64,000 nt of DNA from Bacteroidetes bacterium GWF2_38_335 (GCA_001769535.1 MEOH01000010.1:128414-192413); one strand, 5' to 3'. Numbered from the stretch's first letter, positions 3,001 through 60,688 are shown. The notes: generated by a model not told the origin, from the letters alone. Translations and numbers: made by a program.

Positions 3001-3755
3001 ATTTTCCCAATTCTTTCTCTGGCAGCAGGGATTGAGTCGGGATGAACAAAGCTTATAACTGGTTTTCCAATCAGGTTATTATAATCCGGGTTACCAAAAA
3101 AGTTTACTGCAGCCTGATTTGCCATTTCAAGAATGCCTTCACAATGAACAACAATTGGAAGAGGTGAAATGTCAAACAGATTTTGATATTTTTCTTCTGA
3201 ATCCTGGACTTCCTGTGTTTTTAAAAGGGTTTCATCAAGAGTAGACCTTAATTCTTCGTTTTGGGAAGCATATTCTTCATTTAGAGAAGTATATTCCTCA
3301 TTTTGTTTTTTTAAAAGTTCTTCGGCTTTTTTAGAAACAGTTACATCTTCAATAATACCAATTCCTTCATTAATTTTTCCGGATTCATTTTTAATGCCTC
3401 TGAAAATGGCAATGACCGGAGTGGTTTTTTTTGCGGTAATTGATTTGTATTCACCATCATAATATCCGGTTCCTGATTTCAATGATCTTTTTATTTCCTC
3501 AATAATCTGTTTATTGTCAAGGCGGTTTAACATATCCAGTCCGACAAGTGCCTCTCGGGATGAACCAATGATTTCAACGAACTTATCATTGCAGTCGGTG
3601 ATTACACCTTCTGAATTATAGTGGAAAAGTCCAATTGGCGAGTGTTCATATATTGTCTGGTAAACAGGATAGACCTGTTTTTTCAACTCCATATTTTCTT
3701 TTTCCAGTCGCTTTATCTTTTCAAGCAGCTCTTTTTCGGACAGGTTTTTATCCAT
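1..3755 (-). CDS. Multi-PAS/PAC sensor protein; about 1251 N-terminal aa are visible and the C-terminal output domain lies beyond the window edge
   Basis: Own translation of the minus strand. ATG at 3755-3753 (MDKNLSEKELLEKIKRLEKENMELKK...) with no in-frame stop down to base 1. At least nine PAS/PAC units end in DIT(E/D)RK-like motifs (FNDITERKK, IIDITERKQ, FHDLTDRKN, FKDITEKRK, NKDITDRIE). It is missing from the ORF track only because it has no stop codon inside the window. Confidence 0.85.
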   Translation of the reverse strand, partial: MDKNLSEKELLEKIKRLEKENMELKKQVYPVYQTIYEHSPIGLFHYNSEGVITDCNDKFVEIIGSSREALVGLDMLNRLDNKQIIEEIKRSLKSGTGYYDGEYKSITAKKTTPVIAIFRGIKNESGKINEGIGIIEDVTVSKKAEELLKKQNEEYTSLNEEYASQNEELRSTLDETLLKTQEVQDSEEKYQNLFDISPLPIVVHCEGILEMANQAAVNFFGNPDYNNLIGKPVISFVHPDSIPAARERIGKILSEKGKADIYEEKFIISSGEYRDVEVAASAIKFKGKIAIQVIFNDITERKKIKDELVYNETKYRSFLQQSLDSVVLIDNQGKIVEWNRASEIIFELSREEVLGNYMWDTHYNMTPDFNKATITADYYKRKINGILKKKDSSQVGEFTTNMIKTKSGYKWIQSVVNIIEVNNEVFLASMSRDITEIRVKEQKIAESEKRFKDIANLLPQTVFEIDLEGNIRFINDNGLKCFGYTIPDYEKGLTITQLFPEIELKRVNDNFKKLIKGSNIDNVEYIACKKDKKTFPVLVYPAPIYSDDKLIGFRGFIIDITERKQFFARLEENERKFRMLAENMPGVIYLCNNDLNYSMLFLNDEVENLTGYPKEIFMTGKLNFTDIYHPDDLQKIYDTVNKAVSEKKSFYLFYRIKHKKGHYIWVEEFGGPVYDEKGELIYLEGYIHNITSRIENEEALKESEVKFRSFMETASDMMNIADKDLKLVYVNKSFCEILGYDSSEVIGRHVSDFFHPDEVADKFSNFKHSTLVKEGRVDYETVWLKKNGEKIYGELKVVGTFDENGNFSGSYGVFHDLTDRKNIEEKNKALSDAAFEALIFTERGKIIEINNAAVRLLGFKNAEELIGVDVTKYIPPQYSELVIKNMMANYEHPYEAAVFTKNNTIVPVEFQGKMYEYKGKQVRVTAVKDISARVEAEQALRESETRFKAIFENATDGILATDLNGRKFVFANPRILEITGYTMDEILSLNVSKFHPKESLPYVMECIQKQINGEPLAKDIPVIKKNGELIICDIESNKINIGGNELLVGFFKDITEKRKAEKALIKSEERLRNLLELSSDIIWEIDDKAKFTEVSPKIRQLLGYKEKEIIGREIFDLLPEEEAGEARVIYQKAFKKNIPIKDAVNSLIAKDGTKLFFEITAIPFFNDKGQLEGYRGINKDITDRIEAETALRNNEEKLKTIIRSAENVSFIMTDMSDDPKILEFSPGAEKIFGYNKEDVLGKSIRITHVLS

Positions 3756-3812
3756 AATTTTTTAGGTTGGTTCAATAAAAATATGAAAAAAAAACCAGTT
3801 GTCCAAAATCAA

Positions 3813-3847
3813 TGAAAAACCCGGATATGTTTTATACAATCCGGGTT
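3813..3847 (-). terminator. Rho-independent terminator candidate downstream of the 3870..5192 gene
   Basis: On the minus strand, AACCCGGA-N14-TCCGGGTT hairpin followed by a short T run, about 25-55 nt past the stop at 3870. Confidence 0.55.
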
Positions 3848-3869
3848 GAAAATTTAGTTCGATTTTAGT

Positions 3870-5192
3870 TTACTCTTTTATAATTTTCTGTGAATATGTT
3901 TTCCCTTGTTTACTGAAATTCAAAATGTAGCATCCTGCAGGAAAGGAGGTAAGGTCAATTTTGTAATTTCCAGATATATTGTATTCCAAAATAGCGATTT
4001 CCCTGCCTGTAAGATCTGAAATTGAAATTTTGGAAATATGCTCTTCAGAAGGAATAACAATCTCTAGAGTATTTTGCACCGGGTTTGGATACACGATTAA
4101 TCTGTTTTCTGTCAGATGGTATACATGACTGGCAATAACAATATTCAGGGTGTCTGACATTGTTTCTGAAAAGCAGGTGTTGGAGACCGTTTGATCAACA
4201 ATGTACTCGCCTTCGGTTGAATAGGTATACACGGGGTTTTGATCGACCGAAGTGCTTCCGTCTCCAAAATTCCATAAATAACTATCACCATTGATCGAAA
4301 TGTCGGTAAAGTTTACAGTTCCTTCATCTGCGGTAAAATTGAAGCCTGCAAAAACCATATTTCCGGAATTATACCAGCTGGGCCATTCCAGGTTATAATT
4401 AATTCCGGTATAAGTGTCATTAAATAAAAAATTGTAATCATCATTGCTGACCACGTAGTCAGCAACCAGTTGAAGGTAAGTTGCAACATCTGCATTTAAA
4501 GAACCAATATACGTTGCTCCGGCAGGCGATTTTTTGAACATCGTTCTGTAAAGTACGCATGCAGTGAGGTATGTTCCTGCTATAGAGGGATGACTGTTAT
4601 CACCGGAATATAAATTTATCAGTGAATCGGGATCGTTATCCATGCAGTATTTCCAGGCAAGGCCTACCGGTGATACAGTAGAGGAATTTTGCTCAGTCAT
4701 TGTCATGTATCCGGCCATTAGTCTTTCCTGCATTCCAAGGAACGTGCATACAGGAGGCCATCCGGCGCAATTCATTTCATCGCCGTATTTTCTTCCCCAT
4801 GTCATGAAAAAAACTGTTTCGGTACATGGATTGTTTGATTTTATTGAATCATTCAAAATTGTTGCATAAGGATAAACTTCAGATTCTACTTGTGATGGGG
4901 GCCAGCTGGGTTCCTGACTTTGAGCCTGTAAAATTACAAAATCCCAGTCGTCCTGACTTATTTTTGCAAGTGTGGTTGCGTTGGTTGCATGGTTTAGAAA
5001 CCGGTATCCACCCGGGGTATTTTGATCGGTTGTAATTGTATCGCCCAAAGATAAAGCAAGATTTTTAAGAACTGTTGGGAGGTCATTTGTGTAAACATAG
5101 CTGTTTCCAATAAACAGGATTTTTGTTTTCTGACCAAAGGTCAATACTGTTGAAATGAAGAGGAGTGCGGAAATAATGAATATTTTTTTCAT
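3870..5192 (-). CDS. Secreted SGNH/DUF4886-like hydrolase-fold protein with a PKD-like unit and a T9SS type A C-terminal sorting domain
   Basis: ORF track, 440 aa. Signal peptide MKKIFIISALLFISTVLTFGQ. N-terminal KILFIGNSYVYTNDLP block. PKD-like WNFGDGSTSVDQNPVYTY. C-terminus LIVYPNPVQNTLEI...GCYILNF...KIIKE is typical of T9SS type A CTDs. Confidence 0.7.
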   Translation of the reverse strand: MKKIFIISALLFISTVLTFGQKTKILFIGNSYVYTNDLPTVLKNLALSLGDTITTDQNTPGGYRFLNHATNATTLAKISQDDWDFVILQAQSQEPSWPPSQVESEVYPYATILNDSIKSNNPCTETVFFMTWGRKYGDEMNCAGWPPVCTFLGMQERLMAGYMTMTEQNSSTVSPVGLAWKYCMDNDPDSLINLYSGDNSHPSIAGTYLTACVLYRTMFKKSPAGATYIGSLNADVATYLQLVADYVVSNDDYNFLFNDTYTGINYNLEWPSWYNSGNMVFAGFNFTADEGTVNFTDISINGDSYLWNFGDGSTSVDQNPVYTYSTEGEYIVDQTVSNTCFSETMSDTLNIVIASHVYHLTENRLIVYPNPVQNTLEIVIPSEEHISKISISDLTGREIAILEYNISGNYKIDLTSFPAGCYILNFSKQGKTYSQKIIKE

Positions 5193-15587: not shown

Positions 15588-16176
15588 TGACTTGATGGAC
15601 TTCCAACTTTATGGACTTTCGACTTTATGGACTTTCGACTTTATGGACTTTGTAAACTTATCTTCTGATTAATTTTATCATTCATTTCCGCCGGAATGGG
15701 GCTTTTTGTTCTAATATGTATGTGGCCGGCGGTTTGGATTCTTTCATTATTAAACCCCGGCTTGAAAGCCGGGGCTGAATTTAGCCGGCCTTACAGGCCT
15801 GGATTACAAAAGAAAAAACTTCATCGACTTGATGAACTTTCGACTTTAAAGACTTTTAGCTTTACGGACTTTCGACTTTATGCACTTTTGACTTTATGGA
15901 CTTTCGACTTTATGGACTTTGTAACTTACCTTCTGATTGAACTTTTTCATTAATTCCGCCGGAAAAGGATTTTTCGTTCCAAGGTGTTCATGACCGGCGG
16001 TTTGGCTAATCTAACCTTTAAACCCCGGCTTGAAAGCCGGGGCTGAATTTAGCCGGCCCTGCAGGCCTGGGTAGCGGAAGAAAAAGCTTTAGCGACTTTA
16101 TGGACTTTCAACTTTACAGACTTTTAGCTTTACGGACTTTCAACTTTACGGACTTTCGACTTTATGGACTTTCATC
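15588..16176. repeat. Two diverged copies of a GC-rich hairpin element embedded in 8-nt phased GACTTT microrepeats
   Basis: Cores at about 15645-15810 and 15914-16080 share CCGCCGG...CCGGCGG and AAACCCCGGCTTGAAAGCCGGGGCTGAATTTAGCCGGCC. They are flanked by tracts such as CGACTTTATGGACTTTCGACTTTATGGACTTT. Same family as 58728-59390. Confidence 0.9.
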
Positions 16177-16276
16177 TTTAATCCATTTAATATCTTTTAA
16201 CTTTTTTTTCACAAACAAAAAGAATTTATAGCTTTATCTTTATCAGGCAATTAAAAAAGTATTAAAAAAAACTAAT

Positions 16277-58075: not shown

Positions 58076-58251
58076 TTTTCAAAAAAACCTTTACCTGATT
58101 AATTTGATGCTTAATTTATTTTGAGCCTGTTTCCTCATTGCAACTTGCAAAATTCAGAATTTCCCCAAAACATTTACTATTTTTAAAGTGATTATGAAAT
58201 AATTTCATATTTTTTTCATTAATTTGAAGAAAAATTAAAACATTTTTAACC

Positions 58252-58716
58252 ATGGATTCAAAGCTGAACATTGATAAAACAGACATTCAGATTTTGCAAA
58301 TCATTCAGGAAGATTCAAAAATTGCCTATAAGGATATTGCACAAAAACTGGACATTTCCCTTGGTACTGTCCATGTCAGGATTAAAAAACTCGAGTCCAT
58401 GAATGTGATCAAAGATTTCACCGTTAACCTTGACTATTTCCAGTTGGGATACGAACTGATGGCTTTTATCGGGTTGATCATCAACGGTAAACAGGCTGAT
58501 AATGTAATCAAGGCACTCGAAAAAGTTCCCGAAATTGCTGAACTTCATCATACCACTGGTGGTTATCATATGCTGGCTAAGATTATCTGCAAAAACACCC
58601 ATGTTTTAAGGAATATCATTATCCATAAGATCAATTCCATTGAAGGCATCGAAAAAACCGAGACGATTGTTTCGTTGGCTGAGTTATTCCACAGAAAGAT
58701 TCAGATTGAGGAGTAA
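58252..58716 (+). CDS. Lrp/AsnC-family transcriptional regulator
   Basis: ORF track, 154 aa. N-terminal HTH DKTDIQILQIIQEDSKIAYKDIAQKLDISLGTVHVRIKKLE and a C-terminal RAM-like domain. Confidence 0.85.
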   Translation: MDSKLNIDKTDIQILQIIQEDSKIAYKDIAQKLDISLGTVHVRIKKLESMNVIKDFTVNLDYFQLGYELMAFIGLIINGKQADNVIKALEKVPEIAELHHTTGGYHMLAKIICKNTHVLRNIIIHKINSIEGIEKTETIVSLAELFHRKIQIEE

Positions 58717-58727
58717 ACGCGGGTTGA

Positions 58728-59390
58728 TAGACTTTCGACTTGATGGACTTTAATAATCTTACCTTCTGATTAATTTCATCATTCATTTCCGCCGGAAAAG
58801 TATTTTTGGTTTTTATAACATTTTGGCCGGCGGTTTGTCTATTCTAACCTTTAAACCCCGGCTTGAAAGCCGGGGCTGAATTGAGCCGGCCTTACAGGCC
58901 TGGATTGCGGAAGAATAAGCTTTAACGACTTTATAGACTTTTGACTTGATGGACTTTAATAATCTTACCTTCTGATTAATTTCATCATTCATTTCCGCCG
59001 GAAAAGTATTTTTGGTTTTTATAACATTTTGGCCGGCGGTTTGTCTATTCTAACCTTTAAACCCCGGCTTGAAAGCCGGGGCTGAATTGAGCCGGCCTTA
59101 CAGGCCTGGATTGCGGAAGAATAAGCTTTAACGACTTTATAGACTTTTGACTTGATGGACTTTAATAATCTTACCTTCTGATTAATTTCATCATTCATTT
59201 CCGCCGGAAAAGTATTTTTGGTTTTTATAACATTTTGGCCGGCGGTTTATCTATTCTAACCTTTAAACCCCGGCTTGAAAGCTGGGGCTGAATTGAGCCG
59301 GCCTTACAGGCCTGGATTGCGGAAGAATAAGCTTTAACGACTTTATAGACTTTTGACTTGATGGACTTTCGACTATACAGACTTTCCAAC
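58728..59390. repeat. Three near-identical tandem 206-bp units of the GC-rich hairpin/GACTTT element
   Basis: GGACTTTAAT recurs at 58745, 58951 and 59157 (period 206). I found only two substitutions among the units. No ORF of 60 aa or more on either strand in the track. Confidence 0.92.
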
Positions 59391-59446
59391 TAATTTTGAT
59401 ATTCGGCAATCAATCTTTAACTTCGTGGTTTAATAAATAATTGGAT

Positions 59447-60688
59447 ATGACATTACTGATAAAAAATATAAAGCAGTTGATACAAACTGAGGATAAACCT
59501 GTTAAGTGGAAAGCTGGCAAATCAATGTCAGAACTGAATATAGTTGAAAATGCTTATTTGGAAATTGCAGGTGATAAGATTGCAGATTTTGGATCAATGA
59601 AAAACTGTCCGAAAAAAGCCAATGAGGTCATTGATGCTTCAGGAAAACTTGTGTTGCCTTCTTTTTGTGACTCTCACACGCACTTAGTGTATGCCGGGAG
59701 CAGGGAAATTGAATATGTTGATAAAATAAAAGGTTTGTCTTATGAAGAGATTGCAAAAAGGGGCGGCGGAATTCTGAATTCGGCAAAACTGCTGAGGGAT
59801 ACTTCTGAGGATTGTCTTTTTGAACAAGCAATGGCCAGAATAAATGAAATTATTTCTATGGGTACCGGAGCAGTGGAAATTAAAAGTGGATATGGTCTTG
59901 ATACTGAAAGTGAACTGAAAATGTTGAGGGTAATTAAGCGAATAAAAGAAGCCGCACCGGTTACCGTGAAAGCCACTTTCCTTGGAGCACATTCTGTTCC
60001 CGCCGAATACCGTGGAAATCAAACTGAGTATGTTGATAAGGTAATATATGAGATGTTGCCTCAAGTGGCAGCTGAAAACCTGGCCGATTATATTGATGTT
60101 TTTTGCGACAAGGGTTTTTTTACCGTTGAGGAAACCGACAGAATTTTGATTGCCGGTATGAAATATGGATTGCGTCCAAAAATTCACGCAAACGAGTTGG
60201 CCAATTCAGGAGGAATACAAGTTGGGGTTAAATACAATGCTTTGTCGGTTGATCATCTTGAATATACCGGTGATGATGAAATCATAGCACTTCTTAAATC
60301 AGAAACCATGCCTACTTTATTGCCGGGGGCTGCTTTTTTTCTGGGCATGATCGACCCTCCCGTCAGGAAAATGATCAATGCCGGATTGCCTGTTTGTCTG
60401 GCATCAGATTTTAATCCGGGCTCATCGCCTTCCGGAAACATGAAACTGATAATGTCTTTTGGATGCGTGAAGCTAAGAATGTTGCCCGAAGAAGTAATCA
60501 ATGCCACCACAATAAACGGAGCATACGCCATGGGAATAGAAGATACACATGGGAGCATTGCAAAGGGGAAAGTGGCCAATGTTTATATTACCAAACCGGT
60601 TTCGGGGTATGAATTTCTGCCTTATGCATACGGCAGCAGCCTTGTAGATACAGTAATATTAAACGGGAAGATAGTAAGTAAATACTAA
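59447..60688 (+). CDS. hutI: Imidazolonepropionase HutI (amidohydrolase superfamily)
   Basis: ORF track, 415 aa from TTG 59441; ATG at 59447 (MTLLIKNIKQL). Metal-ligand context FCDSHTHLVYAGSRE. KIHANELANSGG. LASDFNPGSSP. Confidence 0.85.
   Translation: MTLLIKNIKQLIQTEDKPVKWKAGKSMSELNIVENAYLEIAGDKIADFGSMKNCPKKANEVIDASGKLVLPSFCDSHTHLVYAGSREIEYVDKIKGLSYEEIAKRGGGILNSAKLLRDTSEDCLFEQAMARINEIISMGTGAVEIKSGYGLDTESELKMLRVIKRIKEAAPVTVKATFLGAHSVPAEYRGNQTEYVDKVIYEMLPQVAAENLADYIDVFCDKGFFTVEETDRILIAGMKYGLRPKIHANELANSGGIQVGVKYNALSVDHLEYTGDDEIIALLKSETMPTLLPGAAFFLGMIDPPVRKMINAGLPVCLASDFNPGSSPSGNMKLIMSFGCVKLRMLPEEVINATTINGAYAMGIEDTHGSIAKGKVANVYITKPVSGYEFLPYAYGSSLVDTVILNGKIVSKY

Follow-up and report, generated by a model that had tools for sequence, protein, structure and literature searches.

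Tandem intergenic hairpin repeats of the Acido-Lenti-1 family between lrp and hutI in a Bacteroidota genome

Introduction

Between an AsnC/Lrp-type regulator gene (58252-58716) and the imidazolonepropionase gene hutI (59447-60688; genes named from Pfam and the source annotation), the genome of Bacteroidetes bacterium GWF2_38_335, a MAG from groundwater, carries three nearly identical copies of a G+C-rich, multi-hairpin unit. HutI of this MAG shows 100% identity to the protein encoded in the stretch analyzed here. The question raised by this locus is what kind of element the unit is, and in particular whether it represents a new class of structured repeat or a member of a known one. A preliminary description assigned it to no described family and named a REP/BIME-like element among the candidate explanations. 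Here, the repeat was analyzed in the whole surrounding stretch of 64,000 nucleotides (MEOH01000010.1:128414-192413), referred to as the window, and all coordinates are those of the window unless a contig is named.

Anatomy of the tandem repeat

The tandem repeat, designated array A, extends over 58727-59369 on the plus strand. Tandem Repeats Finder described it as 3.1 copies of a 206-bp unit with 99% matches and a score of 1265, and a base-by-base comparison gave the same picture. When the sequence was compared with itself at a shift of 206 bases, identity over 58727-59163 was interrupted at two positions only. Units 1 and 2 are identical, and unit 3 departs from them at just two bases, 59249 (G>A) and 59283 (C>T, turning GCCGGGG into GCTGGGG). 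The preliminary description, which had reported 206-bp tandem units between lrp and hutI with two substitutions among the three copies, was accurate in both respects, and the sequence parts that it named (an AT-rich arm, P1, P2, a GGCC palindrome, and GACTTT repeats) were all recovered in place. Its statement that no ORF of 60 aa or more is present holds literally, but minus-strand ORFs of 59 aa were found at 58813-58992 and 59019-59198.

Every unit of array A is bracketed by a 24-bp direct repeat on the plus strand, TAGACTTT[C/T]GACTTGATGGACTTT, located at 58728-58751, 58934-58957, 59140-59163, and 59346-59369. The AT-rich arm of unit 1 occupies 58758-58788. The structured cores lie on the plus strand at 58775-58908, 58981-59114, and 59187-59320 and scored 153.6, 153.6, and 149.2 bits, respectively, with covariance model R1, which was built from an alignment of 14 cores. 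The core of unit 1 begins with a 5′ single-stranded segment, TCATTCATTTCC, and continues with hairpin P1, a 22-nt spacer, hairpin P2, a 12-nt linker, and hairpin P3. P1 (58789-58833, plus strand, and again at +206 and +412; inverted repeats I12, I14, and I16) is composed of CCGCCGG, a 31-nt loop, and CCGGCGG; P2 (58856-58875, plus strand) is the palindrome CCCCGGC-TTGAAA-GCCGGGG; and P3 (58888-58900, plus strand) is the palindrome GGCC-TTACA-GGCC. An inverted-repeat search in array A recovered the CCGCCGG/CCGGCGG pair 31 nt apart, the CCCCGGC...GCCGGGG palindrome, and CAGGCCTG. On the plus strand of the window, five occurrences of the 20-nt P2 hairpin were counted, compared with zero expected from 100 shuffles. 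To the right of the array, at 59338-59386 on the plus strand, Tandem Repeats Finder detected GACTTT-type short tandem repeats with a 16-bp period (7 + 9).

Between these repeats and hutI, TTTG-N19-TAACTTCG at 59395-59425, 22 nt upstream of the hutI start codon, resembles the Bacteroidetes -33/-7 promoter consensus. If this element is a -33/-7 promoter, array A lies upstream of hutI's own promoter.

Assignment to the Acido-Lenti-1 family

A scan of the whole window at the Rfam gathering threshold gave exactly five matches, all of them to RF01687 (Acido-Lenti-1) and all on the plus strand. Three of the five fall in array A, at 58856-58901 in unit 1 (cmscan, 42.3 bits, E = 3.3e-06), 59062-59107 in unit 2 (42.3 bits), and 59268-59313 in unit 3 (37.1 bits, barely at the gathering score of 37); the remaining two, at 40.9 and 40.2 bits, fall in a second array described below. 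In unit 1, the module comprises P2 as CCCCGGCU-UGAA-AGCCGGGG, the linker CUGAAUUGAGCC, and P3 as GGCCU-UAC-AGGCC, and it corresponds to the CCCCGGC and GGCC hairpins that the preliminary description had listed as the third and fourth parts of the unit. The module of unit 3 bears the C>T change, which yields a G-U pair on the plus strand.

The alignments of the window copies span 46 of 46 model positions, their stem differences from the consensus are compensated pairs, and the conserved unpaired bases GGCU..A.UU..GCCG..CU are matched. The architecture of the family is present in full, with two hairpins (8 bp with a 4-nt loop and 5 bp with a 3-nt loop), a 12-nt linker, and the unpaired GGCU...CG...CU. 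Acido-Lenti-1 and the window units have in common the 8-bp tetraloop hairpin followed by GGCU, the 12-nt linker ending in CG, and the 5-bp hairpin followed by CU. They are also alike in being intergenic, in occurring in multiple copies per genome and frequently in tandem arrays (five copies in two arrays in the window), and in having no assigned function. Array A is thus a well-supported new example of a catalogued Rfam motif and not a new class. Its reported lack of a described family was contradicted, as P2-P3 of every unit matches RF01687 at 37.1-42.3 bits; Rfam cmscan had been proposed in the preliminary description as a check of novelty, and the significant match to this known family refutes it.

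Numerous tandem arrays, with periods of 69-200 bp and spacers that hardly differ, are found in the published RF01687 seed alignment (PMC2864571). Copies from Lentisphaera araneosa in the seed are spaced 200, 192, 110-115, 74, and 69 bp apart, and the 74-bp array consists of the 46-nt motif and a near-identical 28-nt spacer (PMC2864571). These seed arrays indicate that near-identical tandem multi-hairpin units were already a known property of the family. Acido-Lenti-1 was graded by Weinberg in 2010 as a probable RNA that is not cis-regulatory (PMC2864571), and RF01687 is typed in Rfam as "Gene; sRNA". Its taxonomic range is patchy, covering Lentisphaerota, Acidobacteriota, Planctomycetota, Geobacter, and Bacteroidota. 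The host of the window copies belongs to the Bacteroidota, whereas the family was named for Acidobacteria and Lentisphaerae; matches in Tannerella were reported in a 2026 preprint.

The window copies and their relatives also differ from Acido-Lenti-1 in several features. The P2 loop is UGAA in this lineage compared with UNAC in most RF01687 seed sequences, and the lineage has an extra third hairpin (P1), a conserved 5′ single strand, and flanks of 7-9-nt tandem repeats. Only three of the metagenome copies described below pass the RF01687 cut-off, and about half of the related copies fall below it, which indicates that the lineage straddles the boundary of the family. The new elements here are the Bacteroidota branch with P1, the conserved 5′ strand, and the short-repeat flanks; the copy-by-copy evidence of constraint; and the doubt about the annotated strand. 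Acido-Lenti-1 has had no assigned function since 2010, and the present locus adds to it a Bacteroidota branch with a longer conserved unit.

Related copies in the window and in metagenomes

Array B, the second array in the window, which is absent from the preliminary description, consists of two diverged units on the plus strand at 15597-16180 (83% identity, period 268), with (GGACTTTCGACTTTAT)n repeats between and around the units. Model R1 placed its cores at 15674-15807 and 15943-16074, and Rfam placed its Acido-Lenti-1 modules at 15755-15800 and 16023-16068, all on the plus strand. The array sits in a divergent region, with dcuC (minus strand) on one side and a 115-aa ORF (plus strand) on the other. 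In other assemblies, the locus is identical in L036 and differs by one base in L037. An ENA assembly, L039, lacks exactly 32 bp (2 × 16) of the right-hand short repeat of array B, at 16119-16150; this deletion indicates that the flanking short repeats vary in number between samples.

Further copies were collected by scanning metagenomes with a 22-nt word in P2, which returned 14 stretches from three groundwater metagenomes, representing approximately 10 distinct copies (contigs L017-L030). The core of the lineage measures approximately 133-150 nt. Unpaired TCATTCATTTCC, which is conserved, is followed by P1, whose loop has about 31 nt, and then, after roughly 22 nt of U-rich spacer, by P2 and P3 on either side of the 12-nt linker. 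In the window, model R1 found only the five copies already named, and it found no copy in three loci of relatives with approximately 80% HutI identity. Several of the metagenome copies depart from the standard plan. The copy on L028 is truncated to P2-P3; in L030:4152-4283, a diverged copy, P2 is compensated throughout, reading CTCGGGGC-GTT-GCCCCGGG; and at L023:10265-10465, an additional Acido-Lenti-1-like module is nested in the copy and 24 nt are inserted into the P3 loop. In the copy designated L017a (L017:7753-7772), the P2 loop is inverted, reading TTTCAA instead of the TTGAAA found elsewhere, and the flanks keep their orientation, which looks like a hairpin flip at the DNA level.

Two of the contigs also carry unrelated hairpin repeats close to the element. 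On L018, CCGTAGGTT-GAAA-CCTACGG occurs twice at about 3690-3900, adjoining the element, and on the minus strand of L030, CGTAGAGACGCAT...ATGCGTCTCTACG lies about 150 nt upstream of it. Intergenic palindromes of several families seem to be present in these genomes.

Broader searches gave chance matches. A scan of a genome collection for GGGGCTGAATTNAGCCGGCC returned 10 matches in unrelated, mostly G+C-rich taxa, one of them in a coding sequence and none with an Rfam match. The viral, plasmid, and phage collections contained no real match to the element; 57 viral matches to a gapped P1 pattern were judged to be chance, with model R1 finding 0 of them. A 186-aa ORF adjoining three of the loci was likewise dismissed as coincidence, as the three proteins are unrelated.

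Conservation of stems and loops

The three stems of the core consist of G+C only and are nearly invariant. Among 12 distinct cores, mean pairwise identity was 0.99 for the P1 stem, 0.98 for the P3 stem, and 1.00 for the P2 stem, the last value being partly due to ascertainment since the P2 word was the search pattern; P1 and P3 lie outside that pattern, and the sample of copies is small. Outside the stems, the corresponding values were 0.84 for the linker, 0.61 for the P1 loop, 0.57 for the P1-P2 spacer, and 0.50 for the 3′ tail. Because divergence is so sharply uneven along the element, this is not the pattern expected from neutral decay of inserted copies. It appears that selection maintains the stems of each copy and leaves the loops free to drift. 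No covariation of the stems was seen within the lineage, and compensated changes occur only in the diverged L030 copy and across phyla. The combination of invariant stems and free loops suggests that a factor recognizing the element senses its shape as well as its sequence.

Folding of the whole unit was unremarkable on the plus strand (z-score, -0.8) and modest on the minus strand (z-score, -2.4), and only the three local hairpins were robust. A further stem proposed in the preliminary description, in which TTCCGC early in the unit pairs with GCGGAA near its end to close a multi-stem junction, is present in array A but is not conserved in other copies. The 3′ partner is ACAAAA in unit B1 and ACGGGG in L030 and is missing from L023-type tails, and TTCCGC itself overlaps the P1 stem.

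Flanking repeats and copy number

Every core lies amid short tandem repeats with a period of 7-9 nt that are oriented as the core. Their sequence is not constant from one copy to another, and the left and right sides of a single copy can also differ; the types found are GACTTTC/GACTTTATG, CTTCCGA, CATAACC, and CAAACCC. On the plus strand, the downstream flanks are C-rich and G-poor (C, 0.15-0.32; G, 0.04-0.25); of 11 loci, 9 have more C than G, and only array A and L018 do not.

The number of units in array A differs among assemblies, with L001 having a single unit, L002, L003, and L005 two each, and the window three. In L004, the contig breaks inside the repeat, and the NCBI contig of the MAG also ends inside the array A repeat. 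The two-unit assemblies, three independent JGI assemblies, have units distinguished by the same two bases that characterize unit 3, which indicates that at least two units of array A are real. The differences among one, two, and three units could reflect collapse by short-read assemblers instead of real variation.

A mechanism for the expansion of the array is suggested by its anatomy. The 24-bp direct repeats bracket a single unit at a distance of 206 bp and are a likely substrate for unequal crossing-over or replication slippage, either of which would duplicate or delete whole units; the exact 206-bp period would follow from such exchange. The occurrence of one, two, or three units in independent assemblies is in line with this. 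Bracketing direct repeats may provide a simple mechanism for the tandem arrays seen across the Acido-Lenti-1 family. Arrays of this kind break short-read assemblies, and gene callers place spurious small ORFs in them.

Possible function and alternative explanations

We show here that array A consists of tandem copies, variable in number, of an intergenic repeat that is dispersed, and that Acido-Lenti-1 forms the conserved 46-nt centre of this repeat. The repeat is probably a REP/BIME-like structural hairpin module, at the level of RNA or DNA and with a putative function, although we hold this interpretation with some reserve; it lies near one of the candidates named in the preliminary description. 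The functional parts of such a module would be the three G+C-only hairpins, kept exactly in each copy while loops, spacers, and flanks drift. A factor sensitive to both structure and sequence may recognize the hairpins, either in read-through RNA from neighbouring genes or in extruded DNA, and at the present locus the module would sit between the end of lrp and the hutI promoter. On this interpretation, the units of array A are neither a self-contained gene equipped with a promoter and terminator of its own nor a guide array, and they do not form a transposon of the autonomous or TIR type.

The strand and the molecule at which the module acts bear on a different reading, in which each unit is a separate small RNA gene on the plus strand. 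In this reading, UCAUUCAUUUCC would be the 5′ seed, a structured body would follow, and P3 would serve as terminator, the gene having been multiplied in tandem as other multi-copy small RNAs are. The Rfam sRNA typing and the 2010 grading of the family as a probable RNA that is not cis-regulatory (PMC2864571) are in accord with this reading, as is the orientation of the element, which is independent of the neighbouring genes (about half of the loci point toward a downstream gene and the others toward a convergent one). In L023, L019, and L029, a U-run directly follows P3 on the plus strand, and together with the conserved, unpaired 5′ segment this would suit a discrete small RNA; the window copies, in contrast, have no U-tract terminator, and no Rho-independent terminator (hairpin and U-run) was found on either strand of 58200-59600. 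Inspection of the sequence upstream of the cores revealed no conserved Bacteroidetes -33/-7 promoter, and a sigma-70 scan of 58200-59600 yielded promoter-like matches at the level of shuffled sequence. The complement of the putative 5′ seed is not enriched in the window outside the elements, and the sequence-invariant stems, without covariation within the lineage, and the inverted P2 loop of L017a also argue against a small RNA. The wobble pairs are divided: the lineage has four G-U pairs on the plus strand, compared with at least two C-A mismatches that would be G-U on the other strand. The single G-U wobble noted in the preliminary description, which forms only if the plus strand is the RNA, is weak evidence for that strand, and the Rfam seed has the opposite bias. 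In the annotated orientation, the paired columns of the RF01687 seed contain 8 G-U compared with 38 A-C/C-A combinations (70 distinct sequences, many of them related Lentisphaera copies, so that the counts are non-independent). This count does not support the annotated strand of RF01687; an A-C excess would fit the opposite strand or a DNA-level element and raises doubt about the strand given in Rfam. Overall, we consider the small RNA reading possible but rather doubtful. It is also conceivable, although we regard it as improbable, that Acido-Lenti-1 is not a small RNA but a phylum-spanning hairpin-repeat system acting at the DNA level or on either strand. A protein, such as a lineage-specific transposase-like or nucleoid/RNA-binding factor, would then recognize the sequence-invariant stems. 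If so, the Bacteroidota branch would be the most elaborate form, with three hairpins, the 5′ strand, and self-renewing flanks that drive array expansion, and the A-C excess of RF01687 would mean that the wrong strand or the wrong molecule was annotated.

Mobility is another candidate explanation for the dispersal of the REP/BIME-like module. The element might be a non-autonomous mobile element (a MITE or a hairpin type similar to REP/RAYT or IS200/IS605) whose enzyme is encoded elsewhere, with arrays arising from repeated insertion into its own flanking repeats. Its multi-copy and strictly intergenic occurrence, the patchy taxonomic range of the family (Lentisphaerota to Bacteroidota), the truncated L028 copy, and the nested module of L023 are consistent with this, and stems that are sequence-identical within the lineage would be expected for a cognate enzyme. 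The inverted-repeat search, however, found internal hairpins only and no terminal inverted repeats, and the 40 window ORFs scanned include no transposase, reverse transcriptase, Cas protein, or RAYT; the preliminary description had likewise noted neither terminal inverted repeats nor a transposase. There is no clean target-site duplication of fixed length, the flanks being long repeat arrays that are often unlike on the two sides, and the very uneven divergence along the element is unlike neutral decay after insertion. No empty site was found, as the nearest relatives (approximately 80% identity, hutI orthologues) have neither lrp-hutI synteny nor a copy. A mobile element of this type is therefore unlikely. 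That a single unit was wrongly triplicated by assembly is very unlikely indeed: L001 does show a single unit, the NCBI contig ends inside the repeat, and units 1 and 2 are identical, but the two units in each of the three independent JGI assemblies can be distinguished by the same two bases, array B with its diverged units is the same in four data sets save for one base (L037) and the 32-bp indel (L039), and tandem arrays are typical of the family. The P1 loop of about 31 nt, which varies between loci, could recall the spacers of a CRISPR-like or similar guide array, and the 59-aa minus-strand ORFs of array A could recall a small repeated protein. The P1 loops are identical within array A, though, and homologous between loci (consensus ..ATTTTT.GTTCTAA..), and a search of about 0.4 Mb of related DNA with the loops and spacers returned nothing beyond themselves and homologous copies. 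No cas gene was found among the 40 window ORFs scanned, the sole match to a CRISPR direct repeat has E = 1.9, and the earlier view that the array is not CRISPR, its "spacers" being identical, was upheld. From the conserved ATG, the ORF extends for only 4-18 aa in nearly all other copies (38 aa in one, and 51 aa at the left edge of array A), and it attains 59 aa only through read-through of the array, which makes it an artefact that is not conserved. The guide-array or coding reading, with a negligible probability, is refuted for practical purposes.

Comparison with other repeat systems

REP/BIME repeats of enterobacteria and pseudomonads resemble the units described here in being short, G+C-rich intergenic palindromes that are numerous, clustered, and conserved within a lineage, with constrained stems. 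A role as hairpins, at the mRNA or DNA level, has been proposed for them. The orientation of units alternates within BIME clusters, and REPs are tied to RAYT (Y1) transposases. In arrays A and B, by contrast, all units are direct repeats on the same strand, and no cognate RAYT was found among the 40 ORFs scanned in the 64-kb window. The present unit is also unlike REP/BIME in that it strings three different hairpins together in a fixed order.

BOX elements of Streptococcus pneumoniae and MIRU-VNTR loci of mycobacteria share with the units a modular intergenic organization, in which a structured module occurs in variable tandem number at dispersed loci, but their sequences are unrelated to the units. 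BOX elements have terminal modules resembling inverted repeats, and MIRUs often overlap short ORFs; neither feature is present here. Short tandemly repeated repetitive (STRR) sequences of heterocystous cyanobacteria are similar to the flanks of the element, as both are intergenic tandem repeats of approximately heptameric units (here CTTCCGA, CATAACC, and GACTTTC/GACTTTATG) with several types per genome. STRR sequences belong to another phylum, and the repeats described here are attached to a conserved hairpin core.

BrickBuilt, a MITE of Porphyromonas gingivalis, is always intergenic and has "leader" and "tail" segments, an internal 23-nt minisatellite, and small inverted-repeat ends (PMC4596501). 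Compared by description, BrickBuilt and the present element both occur intergenically in Bacteroidota and combine unique segments with a variable tandem repeat. The minisatellite of BrickBuilt is internal and its ends are inverted, whereas the short repeats of the present element flank a hairpin core without inverted ends.

Other features of the window

The 40 ORFs scanned across the window encode domains usual for chromosomal genes, namely PAS kinases, T9SS cargo, DcuC, aconitase, ABC transporters, RecR, ParA/ParB, and SLT. CCGG occurs 306 times in the window compared with approximately 85 expected from base composition, mostly outside the repeats, and GGCC occurs 92 times, which is at expectation. 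Clustering of CCGG as a restriction-modification signal was considered and rejected, since the over-representation of the tetranucleotide is not confined to the elements but extends throughout the window. A tandem repeat of 21 bp (2.6 copies) at 3251-3305 lies within a long ORF on the minus strand that continues beyond the left end of the window. Three paralogous ORFs of 218-219 aa lie in tandem at 38484-40688 on the minus strand; their N-termini are identical and lipoprotein-like, none has a Pfam match, and the first two are 56% identical overall. A ParA/ParB pair is encoded at 40970-42647, from which the window may lie near the chromosomal origin region.
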